Positions 33,749 to 45,347 of a DNA stretch of 64,000 nucleotides are shown piece by piece. Both the position numbers and the translations under genes were made by a program. Every line of letters starts with the position of its first letter. Position 1 is the first letter of the stretch. The stretch is from Candidatus Nanoarchaeia archaeon (lineage in GTDB: Archaea; Nanobdellota; Nanobdellia; Woesearchaeales; SKIA01), in the NCBI GenBank assembly GCA_028279685.1, contig JANQNG010000051.1:9-64008 (forward strand), read 5' to 3'. Below the pieces are notes generated by a model. The model had not been told where the DNA came from and ran no database searches. It saw only the letters and a list, made by a program, of their open reading frames with translations.

Positions 33749-34720
33749 ATGGGTACTTGGGATTTGAAAAAGAAACAAGAACAACTTGATGATGTAGGAA
33801 GGTTAGCGAAAACATTGCGTTCTGCAGGATTTGCTATGTCTGAATCTGAAGCAAAGCGCATGGCAGAAAATATGATTGCCACAGAGAAGCGTATTACGAA
33901 AGAATATGCAGAACAACATAGCTCAACAGAAGTGCCTAAGAAAGAGGCTGCAGAAGAGCAACCCATAAAGAGAGATCCTCTTGATATCCGAATAGACGCT
34001 GAAACTGAGTATGCTGAAGAGCATACTGCTTCAGGAGTAAATAGTGTTGTTGAAGAAGAAAGCACAGCAACAATGATAGATATTCCAACACCACAAACAG
34101 AAGGCCTCGAAATTGCAAAAGAAGTTGAAGAACCAAAAACAGAAGGAGATATAAAACCTCTTGTGCTTGATCAAGATGAATCTTTTGAAGAACCTGCTGA
34201 TGAAGAAATTACTCTTGATGATGTTGATAAAGGAGAAAGTGTCCCTGATCTTGCAATGGAAGAATTCACGAAAGTTGAGAATGAAGAAATAGAACCTGTT
34301 GCAGAGGATCCTGCAGTCGAAGAGCTTACTAAAGAAGATTCATTGGAAGCACCAGAAACATCTAATGATATTCCTCCTGAACTAAAAGAAGCGGCAATGG
34401 AAGCGCCTCCTGAAGATGATTTTCTAGGAAGCGATGCAACACTTAGTGAGCTGATGGCTGAAGAAGAAAGCAAAGCACCTGCAGAAGAAACACATGCTAT
34501 CACGGAAGAACTCTCCGAGCCAATACCAGAGACTCCTGAAGAAGATATTGCTATGGATATTGAAGAACCTTCTGCTGATGACTTACTTGCAGAGGAATTC
34601 AAAGATGCACCCGAAAAAACAACCGAAGTGACTGATATGCCCAAAACAGGAGATATCGATACCTCTGAAGAGGAAAAGATCGACATCACTGATATGTTTA
34701 ACTTCAAAAAGAAGGGATAA
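33749..34720 (+). CDS. highly acidic, low-complexity (Glu/Asp/Pro-rich) protein
   Basis: Short ordered N-terminus, then ~250 aa of E/D/P/T-rich sequence. The antisense Ser-rich ORFs are a mirror artefact. Confidence 0.6.
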   Translation: MGTWDLKKKQEQLDDVGRLAKTLRSAGFAMSESEAKRMAENMIATEKRITKEYAEQHSSTEVPKKEAAEEQPIKRDPLDIRIDAETEYAEEHTASGVNSVVEEESTATMIDIPTPQTEGLEIAKEVEEPKTEGDIKPLVLDQDESFEEPADEEITLDDVDKGESVPDLAMEEFTKVENEEIEPVAEDPAVEELTKEDSLEAPETSNDIPPELKEAAMEAPPEDDFLGSDATLSELMAEEESKAPAEETHAITEELSEPIPETPEEDIAMDIEEPSADDLLAEEFKDAPEKTTEVTDMPKTGDIDTSEEEKIDITDMFNFKKKG

Positions 34721-34768
34721 TTACTATTAAGTAGAAACATTTATATACGGGTTATTCTTTTCCACCGT

Positions 34769-36979: not shown

Positions 36980-38188
36980 TTATTTACCCATATTCCTACC
37001 ACAAATTGGACAGAAAGCAAAATGAAGTAAGACTCTGCTGAACTCTCTCTGAAGATTGGGACGCCTATATCTGGCAAAATAACCTGACCAGTTCAAGACT
37101 GTTTCAGAAAGGTATGAATGCATGATTTGCGTCAATGCATGAAGATTATGTGTTCTCGGATGCCTAAGCAAAAACTTCTTTATCATCCCTTTCTTATCCA
37201 TCTCAAGACGTATCATCATTGTCCCTTCCAAAAGCTCCACAAAAGAGATCGCAGAACCTTGAATAGTCTTTAATTGAAACGTGTTCTTTTTCTCAACAGA
37301 AAGAAGTGCAGCCATCTGCTTTCCACTCTCAGTCCATTGCAGCAATTCAATAGCCATACACGATATCCCTGAAAATATATTATGTTCTTTCTCTTTCATA
37401 TATTTGAGGAAAAATTTCTCTGCGCCACTATCAAGAATCTTTGCATTGTTGAATATTCTTGCTCTTGCTCCTGAGAGAATTCCTTTCTTTGTTGGATATC
37501 GTTCAATTGCTTGCTGTTTTAATGTCAATTGATGTCCAAGCAACACATATTCCTCTATCCGTTTTACACTAAGCAATTCATTCTTGAAATCAAATTTTGT
37601 TCCTTCAATATCAACAAAGTATTTTGCTGTTTTTTCAACAGCAACGAGTAATTCGTTAAAAAGCGTTCTCAATTTTTCAATATCTTCATCAGTAATCTCA
37701 AGATGAACGCCATGTATCAAAAACAGTGGATACGAAGAATGTCCTCCAAGAAGAGAGAGTATCTCATTACAACGCTCAATAATAAAAAATGCTTGCTGAA
37801 CCTCTTTTCTATACTTTTTCAAGTAATTTTTCGGCGTTATTTTGTTGAAGAACGGGGCAGCAGAGAAGTAAAGATATCTTGTACAGTTTCTAATATGTTC
37901 CGCTGCAAGCAATAACTTCCTTATGCGATGTTGATTCTCACTGATCTCTGTCTTGCAAATTTTCTCAACACCATCTAAGCAACAAAGCACATAGCTGAAA
38001 GATTCATGACTGCATATTCTACTGATCATATTAAGCATTTCATTATAATGTACTCCTTCCATTGCAAAGTGTGTATCTTCAGTCTGAACAATGGCAAGCT
38101 TCTGTATATTTCCTTTTACAACATCAAGATCAAGTATGTGTTGCCTTCCTATTCGTATTTTTTTTTTCAGTGACGTTTTCTCAACCAT
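36980..38188 (-). CDS. [NiFe]-hydrogenase large-subunit-like protein (group 3b alpha-like) with degenerate N-terminal metal-binding motif
   Basis: IRIGRQHILDLDV (in place of tRvEGH) and RICSHESFSY (where RxCGxCxxxH is expected). C-terminal FCPICGRNMGK retains CxxC but lacks DP and the terminal His/Arg. Last gene of a beta-gamma-delta-alpha ordered operon. Confidence 0.6.
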   Translation of the reverse strand: MVEKTSLKKKIRIGRQHILDLDVVKGNIQKLAIVQTEDTHFAMEGVHYNEMLNMISRICSHESFSYVLCCLDGVEKICKTEISENQHRIRKLLLAAEHIRNCTRYLYFSAAPFFNKITPKNYLKKYRKEVQQAFFIIERCNEILSLLGGHSSYPLFLIHGVHLEITDEDIEKLRTLFNELLVAVEKTAKYFVDIEGTKFDFKNELLSVKRIEEYVLLGHQLTLKQQAIERYPTKKGILSGARARIFNNAKILDSGAEKFFLKYMKEKEHNIFSGISCMAIELLQWTESGKQMAALLSVEKKNTFQLKTIQGSAISFVELLEGTMMIRLEMDKKGMIKKFLLRHPRTHNLHALTQIMHSYLSETVLNWSGYFARYRRPNLQREFSRVLLHFAFCPICGRNMGK

Positions 38189-38840
38189 TATTCAACACCG
38201 CAAAAGTCTTAAGCGCCTCCTCTATCGCTGTTATATCTTCTTTTTCCGTGAGACACTGCGTAAACGCTTTTAGATTCATTCCTTTTACTGGTCCTCTACA
38301 TCCCGTACAGACTATTCCTTTAGCAGGACAGAGCGCTTCACAACCTCCTAATGTTGCAGAACCAATGCAAGGCAAACCTTTCATGAGCAAACAATCATAT
38401 TCACGCAAGGTACATTGATAACAGACAGGCTTCTTATAGATCAAAGGCGTTTTTCCTTTCTTCAGACAAGCAATAACATCAAGTATTTCTTCTCCCAAAA
38501 CAGGATGTCCTGGAAGCGCAACAGAAACAGGAACAGAAACTGAAATAGCTTGACTTTTGTTCTTCTGTTGTTTTGGAGGAACAAATCCGAAACAAGCTTC
38601 ACTTCCCAGTGCAACAATATGTTTCGCTTTTCCAACATACTTTTTGAGAATTCTCTTCTGATCTTCACACATCAACGCTCCTTCGACAAAAGCAACATCA
38701 ACTTCTTTAGGTTCTTCCTGTATCATTGGGAAAACCTCTAATGAACACATCGCGTCAAGTTTCTTAAACATCTCACTGTTGTAAAATAATGCAGTAGTAG
38801 AACAGCCATCAGATTCCAGTAGAAAGAAACCGACTTTCAT
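38181..38840 (-). CDS. [NiFe]-hydrogenase small-subunit-like protein (group 3b delta-like)
   Basis: C-terminal CYQC...C...PCIGSATLGGCEALCP...CTGCRGP is typical of group-3 small subunits. The proximal-cluster positions read ESDGCS, GSEACFG and PGHP. Confidence 0.65.
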   Translation of the reverse strand: MKVGFFLLESDGCSTTALFYNSEMFKKLDAMCSLEVFPMIQEEPKEVDVAFVEGALMCEDQKRILKKYVGKAKHIVALGSEACFGFVPPKQQKNKSQAISVSVPVSVALPGHPVLGEEILDVIACLKKGKTPLIYKKPVCYQCTLREYDCLLMKGLPCIGSATLGGCEALCPAKGIVCTGCRGPVKGMNLKAFTQCLTEKEDITAIEEALKTFAVLNNG

Positions 38841-39610
38841 AACATCAACCTCTCATATTCGGTATAGGGAATAACTGGCCCATCAACACAAAGATACGTA
38901 TCTTTGATAAGACATTGACCTGAACGCTTGTTATGCCAAGATAATTTACTGTTAACTAACATTTGTATCATCTTCTTGTCATATTTCTTCTCAAGAAGAA
39001 ACTCTATGATCTGTTTTGTTGTTTTCTCTCCTGCAAGCACTGCAATTGTAGACGATGCAGGTATACTAACTTTTCTCAAAAGTGTTATTATGCTTCCTAA
39101 ATGACCATACCATTGCTTGCCCGTCTCCAATGATGTTGTGAATACATTATGTTTCTGTGACCATCGTTTAATATCTTTGACGAAGAACATATTTGCAGGT
39201 TTATTGAATCCTGTGTAAATAATAATGTCGTTGATCTTTTGTTTCTTACTTTCCAAGTATTGAACTAGTGCTCTGGCAATCGGCAACCCTGTTCTATTCA
39301 ATATAATAACTGCGTGCTTTTCCTCAAATTTCTTCACATCAAGTCCTCTGCCAAAAGGCTTATAGATGAATATTTTGCTCCGTTCTTTATACTTAGTAAG
39401 TTCCTTTCCTATTTTACTATCTGTGTTAACAAGAAATTGAAGCATTTTTTTATCATAAGAGCAAATAGGAAATGATGCAACACCAAGAAACGGAACATAT
39501 ACAGGAATATATTGTCCTGGTAAATATGAAAATCTCCCCCTCACTTCCAAAAGAATATTCTTTTTGCTGACCTGTTCTCTTTTCGATATTCTGTATTCTT
39601 TCGGTATCAT
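38837..39610 (-). CDS. oxidoreductase FAD/NAD(P)-binding-fold subunit (HydG/PyrK-like gamma subunit), cofactor motifs degenerate
   Basis: LPGQYIPVYVP, IYKPFGRG, VIILNRTGLPIA, and C-terminal GQCLIKDTYLCVDGPV with only 2 Cys where a 4-Cys 2Fe-2S motif is usual. Confidence 0.55.
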   Translation of the reverse strand: MIPKEYRISKREQVSKKNILLEVRGRFSYLPGQYIPVYVPFLGVASFPICSYDKKMLQFLVNTDSKIGKELTKYKERSKIFIYKPFGRGLDVKKFEEKHAVIILNRTGLPIARALVQYLESKKQKINDIIIYTGFNKPANMFFVKDIKRWSQKHNVFTTSLETGKQWYGHLGSIITLLRKVSIPASSTIAVLAGEKTTKQIIEFLLEKKYDKKMIQMLVNSKLSWHNKRSGQCLIKDTYLCVDGPVIPYTEYERLML

Positions 39611-40557
39611 GATAAACCCTCTTTTTTCAACGATCTTTTCCCTGGTTTCTTCTCAAGATTATTAAGTATCTCTACAAAATCAATATGTGTAGGACATCCT
39701 GTGATACATCGACCGCATCCAACACATAAGGTATGTCCAAAGTTTTTTTTTGAGTATTCTAGTTGAAAAAATATTCTTTGTTTCAGACGTTCTGTCCTTT
39801 CTTTAGGAAAATCGCTGAAATCCACATATTGGTCTGAATCCCATTTTCTAATCTGATTACTCGAGTGAAGATCATAGGCTATTTTTTCTTCATGGATAAA
39901 CTCCATTGATACAGGACATAAAAGATTACACCGACCACAACTCAGGCAGCGCTCATCAGCTGTCTTCTCCCATATAGGATCATCGAAATGATTCATGATG
40001 TTTTTATTTTTTAGATGTCTTGGTGAATTGATTTTTGGTATTTCCATATGGATTTCCTTGTATCTGCTGATAAGTTTTTTCCCTTTATCACTTTTACAAT
40101 CAATATAATACGTGTCATGTAGTTCAAGAATGTATAAATCGTAATAGGGTTTCAAATCCATACTTGAACAAAAACTATAATCATGGCAACCTGTGCAATG
40201 AACACCAATAAGAATAGTATTATTTCTTCTTTGTGTATATCCTTCTTCATCAGCAAAGATTTCATCGAAATGTTTTATGGCATTGAGATCACATAGTCTT
40301 AATCCATAGATAATACGTTCTTTTTTCTCACTAGGTCCGGCGAGTTTTCCCTCACTATAAGTAAACATGACTTCTTCTTTAGGAAGAAAGAATTGTTTTG
40401 CATGAAAATATGGTTGTTCTTTAAGATAGATTTGCTTCATATCTGTAATATGCTTAAATCGAACAACATCTTCTTTGACTGGAGCTATGAATTCATATTT
40501 CTGAATAAGTCTGTAAAGAAACCTTTTGAAATCGTCTTTTTTGATCTCAACACCCAT
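39607..40557 (-). CDS. 4Fe-4S dicluster subunit (HydB-like beta subunit)
   Basis: CLSCGRCNLLCP and CVGCGRCITGCP, two complete CxxCxxCxxxCP motifs. 4-nt overlaps link all four genes. Confidence 0.7.
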   Translation of the reverse strand: MGVEIKKDDFKRFLYRLIQKYEFIAPVKEDVVRFKHITDMKQIYLKEQPYFHAKQFFLPKEEVMFTYSEGKLAGPSEKKERIIYGLRLCDLNAIKHFDEIFADEEGYTQRRNNTILIGVHCTGCHDYSFCSSMDLKPYYDLYILELHDTYYIDCKSDKGKKLISRYKEIHMEIPKINSPRHLKNKNIMNHFDDPIWEKTADERCLSCGRCNLLCPVSMEFIHEEKIAYDLHSSNQIRKWDSDQYVDFSDFPKERTERLKQRIFFQLEYSKKNFGHTLCVGCGRCITGCPTHIDFVEILNNLEKKPGKRSLKKEGLS

Positions 40558-40649
40558 GCCGGCTGGAAGAAGTTGGTGTTTAAATAATAGATTATTCCTC
40601 TCTGATTATTTTATAAACATTTAAATATCTTTTTCTTTTCCTCACTTAA

Positions 40650-43259: not shown

Positions 43260-44282
43260 CTAATTTAATTTATCTATCAGACCATCTGTATAACTTGCCC
43301 GCAATGGAATCTCTTTTTCTTGATAAAGCAATACCCTTCCTTTATCTTTTGGTGTTATCTTCCCAATTTCTTTTGCCACAATACCAGCATCACGATAATC
43401 TCGTAGCAAATCATCAAGGTTATTTGCATCAATACTAATCAACAATGCTCCTGAACCAAATATCCCTAAAGGATCATCTCCAGTAACAGCACATATTCTT
43501 TGAGTCTCTTCTCTGATTGGAATTTTATTGTAATCTATGTAAACACCATTTCCGGAAGCTATTGCTAATTCTTCAATTCCTTTTCTCACACCACCTTCAG
43601 TAGGATCATGTAATGCATTTGGCGAATGATTCCAAGCAATATAGGCAGCTTTCGCAACACAAATCCCAGGATCATAAAGAAATTGTTTTGCTCTTTCTAT
43701 TGTTTCTTCATAAATCTTTCCTTTCAATAACTTATACATATTTGCAGCTAAAATCGCAGTTCCTTCTATCCCCGCACCCCCTGTCAAAACTAATGAATCT
43801 CCTGCTTTTGCTCCTGCTGTAGTTATTATTTTTTCTTTACTAACCTCTCCTAGCATAGTAAGAACAATTCCTGGATTTTTAACCATAGAAGTTACTTCAG
43901 TATGCCCAGTAACTATGGAAATACCATGCGGTTGGATTGCATCATGTAATTGTTTAAAGAATTTATCAACATCATCTAAAGTCGATCCTTCTGGAAAAAA
44001 TACACTTGAAGAAGCCCATTTAGGAATTGCTCCTCTTGTCACAATATCATTTACATTAACAGCAACAGCAAAATATGGAGCATTTGATATATTTACCATA
44101 ATAGGATCTACACAAACAGCCAAACAATTGTTTTTTCTTGAAGTCAAATCAATAACTGCCGCATCCTCTCCAAGCTTCGGACCAAGTATTATTCTTTCAC
44201 TTTCACTATTTGTATACTTCTCTAAAATAATAGACAACTCATTATCCGGTAATTTTCCCAACTTTAATTTTTTTGAATGCAT
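43260..44282 (-). CDS. AIR synthase-related protein (PurM/ThiL/HypE/SelD superfamily)
   Basis: GEDAAVIDL, AVNVNDIVTRGAIP, IVTGHTEV, LVLTGGAGIEGTAILA and HDPTEGGV follow the PurM-like N and C domain order. Start set at Met12 (ATG 44282). Confidence 0.7.
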   Translation of the reverse strand: MHSKKLKLGKLPDNELSIILEKYTNSESERIILGPKLGEDAAVIDLTSRKNNCLAVCVDPIMVNISNAPYFAVAVNVNDIVTRGAIPKWASSSVFFPEGSTLDDVDKFFKQLHDAIQPHGISIVTGHTEVTSMVKNPGIVLTMLGEVSKEKIITTAGAKAGDSLVLTGGAGIEGTAILAANMYKLLKGKIYEETIERAKQFLYDPGICVAKAAYIAWNHSPNALHDPTEGGVRKGIEELAIASGNGVYIDYNKIPIREETQRICAVTGDDPLGIFGSGALLISIDANNLDDLLRDYRDAGIVAKEIGKITPKDKGRVLLYQEKEIPLRASYTDGLIDKLN

Positions 44283-44387
44283 CGTACCTTCGCAAAGAAA
44301 TAAAATACTCAACAATTAATTAAAATAATCATTAATTTATAGAACTTTTTGGTAAAATTTATATATTATTTACCTTATTATTCTGTT

Positions 44388-45347
44388 ATGAACCTAAAGA
44401 AGAGAGATAAAGATATTTTAAAAATCCTCAATAAAAATTGTCGTGAACTAGATTCTACTATTGCTAGAACGTTGAAAATAAGCAAACAAGCAGTAAGTTA
44501 CAGAATCAAAAAAATGCAGGAGAATAGACTAATAAAAAAATTTTATACAGAATTCAATATCAGTAAACTAGGAAATAATTCTTATTATATTTTTCTAGAA
44601 TTAGAAAGAATAACAAACAAGATAGAGAATGAAATAATTAAAAAGCTAATAAATGAAGAAAACATTGGCTGGATTATTAATAGCGTTGGAAAAATAAATA
44701 TCATTCTTTTAGTTTATGCTAAAACACTCAGCACATTTGAAGAGTTATACTCAAGAATTAAGAACATTTGTTCAGAACATCTAAAAGAAGCAACCTTTTC
44801 GATTTTAACTAATTCCCAAAAACTAAGTTATAGATTCTTAGAAACAGATCTTGAAGGTGTTCAAACAGAACAACTCCGACCAATACTATTAGATGATGAA
44901 GATATTAAGTTGATGAGGTTCTTGGCACAAAATGCAAGAGAAAAAATAACAACAATTTCTAATCAGACTGGATTATCTATAGATATTGTTAGATATAGAT
45001 TAAAAAAACTCAAAGAAAACAAAGTTATTAATGGATTCAGGATGAAATTGGATGTTTCTAAACTAGAAATTCAATGGTATCTTTTATTACTTAAGTTACA
45101 AACAATTGATGAAAAAACGAAAAAAAGATTCCTTAATTATATACTACAACAAAAAGAAATATATTATTTAACATCAACAGTCGGAAACTATGATTTGATT
45201 GTTGATTTACATGTAACAAAGTCTACAGACGTTAGGAATTTAATATTTAGATTACGAGACAAATTCCCAGAAGTTATCAAAAACTTTGAAACGCTACTAA
45301 TCTTCAAAGAATATAAACTTAGTTATCTCCCATCACTTCCTAATTAA
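44388..45347 (+). CDS. Lrp/AsnC-family transcriptional regulator, tandem (second such gene in the window)
   Basis: KRDKDILKILNKNCRELDSTIARTLKISKQAVSYRIKKMQENRLI and DDEDIKLMRFLAQNAREKITTISNQTGLSIDIVRYRLKKLKENKVI. Start set at ATG 44388, ~25 nt after the TTTATATATT box. Confidence 0.8.
   Translation: MNLKKRDKDILKILNKNCRELDSTIARTLKISKQAVSYRIKKMQENRLIKKFYTEFNISKLGNNSYYIFLELERITNKIENEIIKKLINEENIGWIINSVGKINIILLVYAKTLSTFEELYSRIKNICSEHLKEATFSILTNSQKLSYRFLETDLEGVQTEQLRPILLDDEDIKLMRFLAQNAREKITTISNQTGLSIDIVRYRLKKLKENKVINGFRMKLDVSKLEIQWYLLLLKLQTIDEKTKKRFLNYILQQKEIYYLTSTVGNYDLIVDLHVTKSTDVRNLIFRLRDKFPEVIKNFETLLIFKEYKLSYLPSLPN

Follow-up and report, generated by a model that had tools for sequence, protein, structure and literature searches.

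Organization of the operon

The stretch of DNA considered here, referred to as the window, is 64,000 nucleotides long and comes from the genome assembly of a Candidatus Nanoarchaeia archaeon (GenBank assembly GCA_028279685.1, contig JANQNG010000051.1, positions 9 to 64,008 of the forward strand). Between positions 36980 and 40557, its minus strand carries a four-gene operon that resembles the operons for group 3b [NiFe]-hydrogenases. The open reading frames (ORFs) follow the sulfhydrogenase order beta-gamma-delta-alpha, and neighbouring genes are translationally coupled, overlapping by 4, 4 and 8 nt. Both the ORF coordinates and the homology of the subunits confirm this arrangement, which had been recognized in a preliminary description made from the sequence letters. 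The operon and its upstream region are laid out as follows:

40558..40649, minus strand: intergenic stretch upstream of the beta gene, with TATA-like boxes rich in A/T; one of them, TTATTTAAA, lies about 25-30 nt upstream of the ATG
39607..40557, minus strand: beta-like subunit, related to HydB/ShyB/AsrA, ORF of 316 amino acids
38837..39610, minus strand: gamma-like subunit, related to AsrB/HydG and FNR-like proteins, 257 amino acids, with degenerate cofactor motifs
38181..38840, minus strand: delta, small-subunit-like, ORF of 219 amino acids
36980..38188, minus strand: alpha, large-subunit-like, ORF of 402 amino acids

The A/T-rich boxes before the beta gene are a putative promoter. By direct reading, a Shine-Dalgarno-like GAGG or GGTG lies 8-10 nt before each of the three internal genes, and the sequence upstream of beta has no Shine-Dalgarno sequence. 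The operon consists of the beta, gamma, delta and alpha genes only, with no membrane subunits of the Mrp or NuoH/L type.

Cofactor ligands and conserved motifs

The four proteins were aligned with 59-80 canonical subunits per alignment, taken from loci fetched with the beta alignment and including 59 canonical alphas. A column was scored as a ligand if Cys is found in at least 85% of the canonical subunits, and as a motif position if it is at least 90% conserved. The relevant motifs, all read at exact coordinates, are:

38138..38161, minus strand: alpha KIRIGRQH at the site of the L0 motif hItKiEGHa; with EGH changed to GRQ, the Glu of the proton path is missing
37991..38020, minus strand: alpha L1 motif RICSHESFSY; Cys59 is kept, Cys2 is replaced by Glu62 and the motif His by Tyr66
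37223..37234, minus strand: alpha LLEG where canonical alphas have APRG, without the conserved Arg of the active site
36983..37015, minus strand: alpha C-terminus FCPICGRNMGK; CxxC (Cys393, Cys396) is kept, DP is replaced by AF and His by Asn399
38799..38816, minus strand: delta ESDGCS in place of CxGC; the first proximal Cys is absent (a gap, or Ser10/Asp11) and Cys13 is kept
38592..38606, minus strand: delta GSEAC where GxCA is expected; Glu81 occupies the third proximal ligand position, with Cys83 two residues on
38502..38513, minus strand: delta PGHP where GCPP is expected; His112 occupies the fourth proximal ligand position
38298..38423, minus strand: delta medial and distal array; all eight invariant Cys are kept (C140, 143, 150, 158, 167, 171, 178, 181)
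39263..39301, minus strand: gamma LNRTGLPIARALV at the site where, by alignment to canonical gammas, the NAD(P)-binding GGxGxAP loop is expected
38888..38938, minus strand: [2Fe-2S] region at the C-terminus of gamma, WHNKRSGQCLIKDTYLC; of its four Cys, Cys233 and Cys241 remain, and Trp225 and Ser230 replace the other two
39901..39948, minus strand: first ferredoxin motif of beta, CLSCGRCNLLCP, which is intact; after it comes VSME, with the two extra conserved Cys of the canonical TCxC lost
39829..39843, minus strand: beta WDSDQ where canonical betas have W.SCQ; the conserved Cys is Asp242
39691..39726, minus strand: beta second ferredoxin motif CVGCGRCITGCP, intact

The motifs quoted in the preliminary description (RICSHESFSY, FCPICGRNMGK, ESDGCS, PGHP and two copies of CxxCxxCxxxCP) were all found again, and their registration is upheld both by the canonical homologues and by HMMER alignment to soluble hydrogenase I (SHI) of Pyrococcus furiosus, in which RICSHESFSY corresponds to RICSFCSAAH, ESDGCS to TSCYGCQ and PGHP to YGCP. 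Several of its statements stand unchanged: alpha ends in FCPICGRNMGK, three residues after the position of the His, and therefore has no cleavable tail; both ferredoxin motifs of beta are perfect, with eight of eight Cys; the C-terminal medial and distal array of delta is complete; and gamma has two of its four C-terminal Cys, with all four nucleotide and flavin motifs lost where weak FAD and NAD motifs had been noted. Two statements need revision. In alpha, Cys2 is indeed replaced by Glu and the His by Tyr, but the loss at the Ni-Fe site is smaller than had been claimed, given that the C-terminal CxxC is kept and three of the four Cys remain, not two. In delta, the Asp and His replacements at the proximal cluster are correct, but three Cys are gone rather than two, as the ligand in the GxC motif is Glu81.

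Both L1 Cys are invariant in the canonical alphas, and the window alpha departs from the group 3b motif RxCGxCxxxH. It reads AFCPICGRN at the L2 motif DPCxxCxxH and LLEGTMMI at APRGxxxH (APRGxLxH). In all, alpha has lost Cys2, the Glu of EGH, the Arg of APRG and both motif His, at positions that are 90-100% conserved in the 59 canonical relatives. Delta retains one of four proximal Cys and eight of eight medial and distal Cys, short of the 12 Cys expected of a group 3b small subunit. Gamma lacks the FAD and NAD(P) motifs and the full [2Fe-2S] site of a group 3b gamma subunit: GGxGxAP reads NRTGLPI, GEaPIS reads GVASFP, RGPYG reads YKPFG and CGPP reads AGEK. Of seven further Cys conserved in canonical betas, the window beta keeps C89, C121 and C130 and has lost the other four (C128S, C217S, C219E, C242D), such that no complete four-Cys site is possible among those that remain.

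The ligand losses are cluster-specific, not random. The Cys of the central clusters are all kept (16/16), as against 9/19 of the peripheral ligand Cys (Fisher p=5e-4), and at five of the ten sites where a ligand Cys was lost the replacement is Glu, Asp or His (E62, E81, H112, E219, D242). Conservation is likewise uneven among the subunits, with conserved columns kept at 41/54 (76%) in beta, 26/37 (70%) in delta, 21/56 (38%) in gamma and 28/89 (31%) in alpha. Judged by these alignments, the ligands are incomplete at both ends of the ancestral electron path, that is, at the Ni-Fe site and proximal cluster on one side and at the FAD, NAD(P) and [2Fe-2S] sites and the extra Cys of beta on the other, and the Cys set of each of four predicted [4Fe-4S] clusters is complete: two of these belong to beta, and delta contributes the medial and the distal one.

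A canonical operon in the same genome

The genome assembly spans 1.9 Mb in 80 contigs and is about 92% complete; the window belongs to contig C61. A canonical group 3b operon, also in the order beta-gamma-delta-alpha, lies on contig C1 (C1:33646-37391). Its alpha reads KICGICSVAH and DPCFSCGTHF, and the operon keeps all of the proximal, [2Fe-2S], NAD-loop and extra beta Cys features. The tetranucleotide compositions of C61 and C1 are nearly identical (r=0.994) and their G+C contents near-equal, and the two contigs are therefore assigned to one organism. The window subunits are 38% (beta), 25% (gamma), 37% (delta) and 25% (alpha) identical to those of this canonical paralog.

The window has no hyp maturation genes, as had been observed. 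A search of the rest of the genome for hypA-F located hypA, hypC, hypD, hypE and a short hypF adjoining the canonical operon on C1. The HypE there scores 357 bits, above cutoff, HypC begins MCLAVPGK, and HypF is 359 amino acids long and corresponds to the Kae1-like C-terminal half only. The absence of hyp genes from the window is thereby explained, and it is uninformative about the window operon. Neither a HycI-type protease nor a GTPase-type HypB was detected in the assembly.

Two candidates for further maturation genes were rejected. A 124-amino-acid ORF between the canonical operon and hypF (C1:38058-38432, minus strand) reads CFGNEYVKEDA near its N-terminus, recalling the GNxxxxDD of maturation endopeptidases, but its GNEYVKED motif is accompanied by no Pfam, NCBIfam or PDB match. 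In the window, an AIR-synthase-family protein of 351 amino acids (43260-44315, minus strand) scores 112 bits as HypE (cutoff 251.6) and nearly the same, 104 bits, as ThiL; it is below both cutoffs, lacks a C-terminal Cys and represents a third paralog type beside the true HypE. The hydrogenase and hyp neighbourhood on C1 (C1:33646-43141) also includes a rubrerythrin-like gene and a HAD hydrolase gene.

Relationship to group 3b hydrogenases

The equivalog cutoffs of NCBIfam for sulfhydrogenase subunits (alpha 880, delta 460, beta 690 and gamma 600 bits) are tuned to Thermococcales, and all of the window subunits score below them. Alpha matches HydA with 45 bits, as compared with 295 bits for the canonical paralog; delta matches ShyD with 109 bits; beta matches AsrA with 130 bits and ShyB with 106 bits, both under cutoff; and gamma matches the sulfhydrogenase model with 48 bits and AsrB with 108 bits, as compared with 270 bits for the canonical gamma. 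The subunits of the canonical operon likewise stay under the sulfhydrogenase cutoffs, although they score 2-6 times higher than the window copy. In Pfam, beta matches Fer4 families and delta matches Oxidored_q6 (E=2.6e-13), and gamma and alpha have no match. The NCBIfam scores of the window proteins against NuoD (26 bits) and NuoB (20 bits) are below those for group 3b.

When the subunits were searched against the sequences of the PDB, the nearest solved structures were chains of P. furiosus SHI, the best match for beta being 9nez_B (E=3e-23). An AlphaFold2 model of alpha, built on an 80-sequence alignment, has a mean predicted local distance difference test score (pLDDT) of 89.9 and a predicted template modelling score (pTM) of 0.92, and Foldseek ranks the alpha chains of SHI first (TM 0.84-0.87; 9nf0_H and 9e15_L at 0.85-0.87). 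The model of delta (pLDDT 85.8, pTM 0.85) likewise finds SHI delta first (9nez_A, TM 0.85); it is least confident at residues 11-20 (mean 59), the loop of the first proximal ligand. Alpha is thus predicted to have the large-subunit fold of a group 3b [NiFe]-hydrogenase.

Most of the loci whose betas come closest to that of the window are from metagenome-assembled genomes (MAGs) of Ca. Woesearchaeota, Nanoarchaeota or Nanoarchaeia, and the archaeal markers TYW3 and diphthamide synthase are encoded in the window; the host is accordingly taken as a Woesearchaeales-like DPANN archaeon. A tree of beta and delta places the window copy inside the Woesearchaeota-type radiation of group 3b (support 95/96) without settling on an exact position there. 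The branch leading to the window copy is long, 1.25 as compared with a median of 0.35, and that of alpha is 1.94. Derivation of the module from a group 3b [NiFe]-hydrogenase is supported by its gene order, by P. furiosus SHI as the best match in both sequence and fold, and by its placement in the beta and delta tree.

Evidence for selection

The four frames are open over 1194 codons. With an off-frame stop frequency of 0.087 in a genome of 36% G+C, the probability of such an open stretch is about 5e-48. Codon scores for the four genes are +0.14 to +0.26 in frame and -0.36 to -1.11 out of frame. Ranked among the coding scores of the genome, delta is at the median and beta at the 9th percentile, the same as the canonical beta; the lower scores of alpha and gamma, which are considered below, fit a relaxed or shifted constraint on these two subunits. 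At more than one replacement per site, the frames would not have survived neutral drift. The open frames, the in-frame codon scores, the preserved overlap junctions and Shine-Dalgarno-like sites and the 16 retained Cys are indirect evidence, which points to an operon that is still under selection rather than decaying.

Other ligand-poor operons

A full HMMER pass over 1.84 billion representative proteins gave 148 matches at E<1e-3. Alphas that are poor in ligands are enriched at the top of this list and fall into three types:

Type A, which keeps Cys1 and the C-terminal CxxC and has lost Cys2 and the APRG Arg: window alpha, P0014, P0015, P0063, P0067, P0138
Type B, with no Cys: P0002, P0006, P0008, P0019, P0021, P0025, P0147
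Type C, with RIDSxxS and ending in YYL: P0003, P0005, P0017, P0083, P0140

On all seven of the contigs that were opened, which represent six different alphas, the ligand-poor alpha sits in a beta-gamma-delta-alpha operon. These include P0003 on JAAOYE010000035, a Ca. Woesearchaeota MAG in which the degenerate operon and a canonical one are adjacent and divergent, as well as P0002, P0014, P0015, P0063 and P0138 (loci L106, L020, L104, L105 and L146). In the P0014 operon, a gene for a short-chain dehydrogenase/reductase lies between gamma and delta (L020 1569-2303), and genes for an ATP-binding cassette transporter and glyceraldehyde-3-phosphate dehydrogenase lie downstream; the related locus L105 likewise has a glyceraldehyde-3-phosphate dehydrogenase gene downstream of its operon.

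Like the window operon, these group 3b-like operons have an alpha without some or all of the Ni-Fe ligands and without the Arg of APRG, and several of their alphas keep exactly the same Cys1 and C-terminal CxxC. The NAD loop of gamma is lost in L021 and L106 and the extra Cys of beta are lost in L146; the window copy has lost both. The other operons keep four proximal-cluster Cys and the four [2Fe-2S] Cys of gamma, whereas the window copy does not. Among the ligand-poor operons examined it is the only one stripped at both ends, and its alpha is 19-28% identical to the others. A single clade of all ligand-poor operons is unsupported, as they fall into at least three lineages in the beta and delta tree, though beta alone favours a grouping of the window copy with L021 and L106 (log-likelihood 36 higher when so constrained). 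The window operon is thus the most stripped in a loose and probably polyphyletic set.

Searches among relatives returned mostly canonical enzymes. When 60 related genomes were searched for orthologs, all 12 best matches were canonical, and at 80 beta-related loci 65 of 66 alphas were canonical or truncated canonical. A word-indexed homolog search with alpha returned only the query itself. The order, which comprises more than 130 families with genomes of about 1 Mb, was surveyed in 401 genomes with a profile built from ligand-poor alphas that scores canonical proteins equally well. Among the 30 best loci of this survey, a degenerate alpha is found only in G232, with the same sequence as P0003. 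In ten genomes the alpha profile matched only weakly, with E from 1e-11 to 1e-32 (G025, G077, G176, G240, G275, G292, G331, G336, G397 and G116); four of them share one genus (g74), and the matches could be highly degenerate large subunits or NuoD-like proteins.

Second copies in eight genomes proved to be canonical delta-alpha pairs without beta and gamma. These second pairs are fully liganded (RICGVCSxxH, DPCISCSTH; L138-L145 in G167, G198, G305, G258, G398, G011, G048 and G020), are in tandem with the four-gene operon in two genomes and resemble the two-subunit "hyd2" type of bacteria of the candidate phyla radiation (CPR).

Interpretation

The alignments support the view that the window copy cannot be an ordinary hydrogenase, and the best reading of its motifs is that the complex would no longer serve as a hydrogenase or as an NAD(P)H oxidoreductase. 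In the ancestor, electrons would have passed from NAD(P)H to FAD and the [2Fe-2S] cluster, probably by way of the extra cluster in beta, and at the other end from the proximal cluster to the Ni-Fe site. The operon is interpreted as a lineage-specific, fast-evolving paralog of group 3b that has been selected as a non-hydrogenase iron-sulfur complex with a four-cluster relay, a reading to which a probability of roughly 0.5 is assigned. The four proteins would still assemble as a complex, which might act as a ferredoxin-like electron relay or as a redox buffer. The surface-exposed clusters at its ends could exchange electrons with partners such as ferredoxin, pyruvate:ferredoxin oxidoreductase or the canonical hydrogenase, with alpha and gamma perhaps acting as scaffold or docking subunits.

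Several points weigh against this interpretation. A relay without a defined donor or acceptor is a weak mechanism, and the flanking genes in the window are unrelated to the operon and suggest no electron partner. No close relative or ortholog of the window copy was found in the 1.84 billion representatives, where the best non-self match is 26-28% identical, and genomes of the same family have no hydrogenase at all. Within the genome, the coding score of gamma ranks at the 3rd percentile and that of alpha at the 2nd, which fits weak constraint or low expression. The high pLDDT of the models owes partly to the homolog alignment. The identity of the cluster that the lost Cys of beta would have bound, and its putative place on the gamma side, are inferred. 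Finally, many of the substitutes are metal-competent (Glu62, Glu81, His112, Glu219 and Asp242), leaving room for altered sites.

The last point is the basis for a tentative alternative of altered ligation, in which the Glu, Asp and His replacements build new metal centres and alpha acts on a substrate other than H2, its chemistry being fed through the clusters of delta and beta. The putative sites are Cys3-Glu (plus His61) in the Ni-Fe pocket of alpha and Cys13/Cys83/His112/carboxylate at the proximal position of delta. Mixed ligation of iron-sulfur clusters by Cys, His and carboxylates occurs in other proteins. Such sites are suggested by the replacements at half of the ten lost Cys, by Ser10 and Asp11 as neighbours of a sixth position, by the Cys two residues past Glu81, and by the retention of three of four Ni-Fe Cys in an alpha only about 25% identical to the canonical one; P0014, P0015, P0063, P0067 and P0138 keep the same three Cys, with Cys2 replaced by Ser, Asn or His and the APRG Arg lost. 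However, the ligand set beyond the three Cys is common to no relative, the substitute for Cys2 varies (E, S, N, H), the delta site is unique to the window copy given the all-Cys proximal cluster of the other ligand-poor operons, the confidence of AlphaFold2 is lowest at the first proximal loop, and alpha is the least conserved subunit with the weakest coding score. It is unlikely that the operon belongs to a repeated transition of soluble group 3b enzymes to non-hydrogenases in which the window copy, with new Cys3-Glu and Cys/His/carboxylate centres on its four-cluster chain, has become a new redox enzyme. If metal does bind in either the Cys3-Glu pocket or the Cys/His/carboxylate site, a well-known scaffold would contain a new kind of cofactor environment. 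A hydrogenase that still works by unusual ligation is far less probable and can be nearly dismissed. Three Ni-Fe Cys and a carboxylate are at the site and Hyp proteins are encoded in the genome, but alpha is without Cys2, the Glu of EGH, the Arg of APRG and either motif His, the proximal cluster is short of ligands, the NAD(P)H/FAD/[2Fe-2S] branch has been lost, and all NCBIfam scores are far under cutoff, that of alpha at 45 as compared with 880 bits. The established view is that all four Ni-Fe Cys are required for hydrogenase activity.

An accessory or regulatory role is doubtful. The subunits could form mixed assemblies with the canonical group 3b enzyme, act as a decoy or chaperone for the Hyp proteins during its maturation or serve as a redox sensor, with no electron transport of their own. 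The coexistence of degenerate and canonical operons in one genome, their adjacent and divergent arrangement in JAAOYE010000035 and the better conservation of the beta and delta interfaces would fit such a role. On the other hand, the window and canonical operons are on separate contigs with unrelated neighbours, no regulator is linked (between the Lrp/AsnC-type gene at 44349-45347 and the operon lie 3.8 kb and three unrelated ORFs), and the retention of all 16 Cys of the four clusters argues for a redox function over a purely structural one. Decay of a duplicated operon under relaxed selection, already functionless and heading for loss, is improbable. It would account for a singleton with very long branches (1.94 for alpha, 1.25 for beta and delta), for the loss of cofactor sites from all four subunits, for the low coding scores of alpha and gamma and for the absence of the operon from the relatives searched. 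It is difficult to reconcile with 1194 open codons (P about 5e-48) despite more than one amino-acid change per site, with overlapping start and stop junctions and Shine-Dalgarno-like sites that are kept, with strongly negative codon scores out of frame, with the cluster-specific pattern of loss (p=5e-4) or with the intact fold signal. The proposal of a hydrogenase-derived module in the preliminary description holds; the altered ligation and the repurposing that it offered as outcomes are inseparable in this analysis.

Comparison with known systems

The window operon shares its gene order and the folds of alpha and delta (TM about 0.85) with the group 3b enzymes SHI and SHII of P. furiosus (PDB 9nez, 9nf0, 9e15). 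In the two ferredoxin motifs of beta, and in the medial and distal clusters of delta, it agrees with SHI and with the canonical operon on C1. In contrast to canonical group 3b enzymes, the window copy is without one Ni-Fe Cys, EGH, APRG, the motif His, three of four proximal Cys and the C-terminal tail, and also without the FAD and NAD motifs of gamma, half of the [2Fe-2S] ligands and four of the seven extra Cys of beta.

A large and small subunit pair that persists after giving up Ni-Fe ligation and H2 chemistry is known from Ehr, Mbx, Mbs and complex I (NuoB-NuoD), and the window pair would be comparable. These systems are membrane-bound and derived from group 4, and they retain the proximal (N2-type) cluster, through which electrons leave for a new substrate, whereas the window operon is soluble and derived from group 3b, has no membrane subunits and has lost most of the proximal ligands as well as the entry branch. 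The comparison with Ehr and Nuo that had been drawn for the window operon therefore fails on a key point, as its delta has lost three of the four ligands of the cluster that the group 4 derivatives keep. The large subunits of the Ehr type are without the Ni-Fe Cys; the window alpha has lost one of four together with other catalytic residues, and three Cys remain. The operon is interpreted as a hydrogenase-derived non-hydrogenase, a kind already known from the group 4 descendants, and it would be a soluble parallel to the path from group 4 to Ehr and complex I.

An identity as an AsrAB-like enzyme was considered and rejected. Beta and gamma give their best NCBIfam matches to AsrA (130 bits) and AsrB (108 bits), but the canonical group 3b beta and gamma of the same genome also match AsrA with 200 bits and AsrB with 270 bits, scores similar to or higher than those for the sulfhydrogenase models, AsrB being the best match of gamma there too, which indicates a cross-match between families. 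Unlike AsrABC, the operon has no siroheme subunit AsrC, and its third and fourth genes are homologues of the hydrogenase delta and alpha subunits.

Ehr has been described in CPR bacteria and Margulisbacteria, the hyd1 and hyd2 types related to group 3b in CPR bacteria, and group 3b itself in Woesearchaeota (PMC7304191, PMC6349859, PMC8421398, PMC11216029, PMC9258230). No published description of group 3b operons without ligands was found in a literature of which coverage was incomplete. Genome surveys of DPANN archaea and CPR bacteria routinely take "group 3b hydrogenase" operons as evidence of H2 metabolism. The window operon would be miscounted in this way, as would the ligand-poor alphas that form at least about 19 other clusters at 50% identity among the top matches. 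Taken together, these operons form a natural series of dismantled hydrogenases, in which the Ni-Fe site only, then the NAD loop in addition, then the extra cluster of beta and finally, in the window copy, both ends are affected, and the series separates the cofactors that are dispensable from those that are always kept.

Neighbouring genes

The genes that flank the operon encode TYW3, small secreted or membrane proteins, uncharacterised ORFs, the AIR-synthase-like protein, a tandem Lrp/AsnC regulator and a diphthamide synthase. The product of the regulator gene (44349-45347, plus strand), 332 amino acids long, combines a tandem pair of AsnC-type helix-turn-helix modules, at residues about 17-63 and about 181-222, with a single Lrp/AsnC ligand domain and is predicted to be a duplicated Lrp/AsnC-type regulator. 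On the other side of the operon, a very acidic, low-complexity ORF of 323 amino acids, rich in Glu, Asp and Pro and without a family assignment, lies at 33749-34720 on the plus strand, with a Ser-rich shadow ORF opposite (34171-34740, minus strand).

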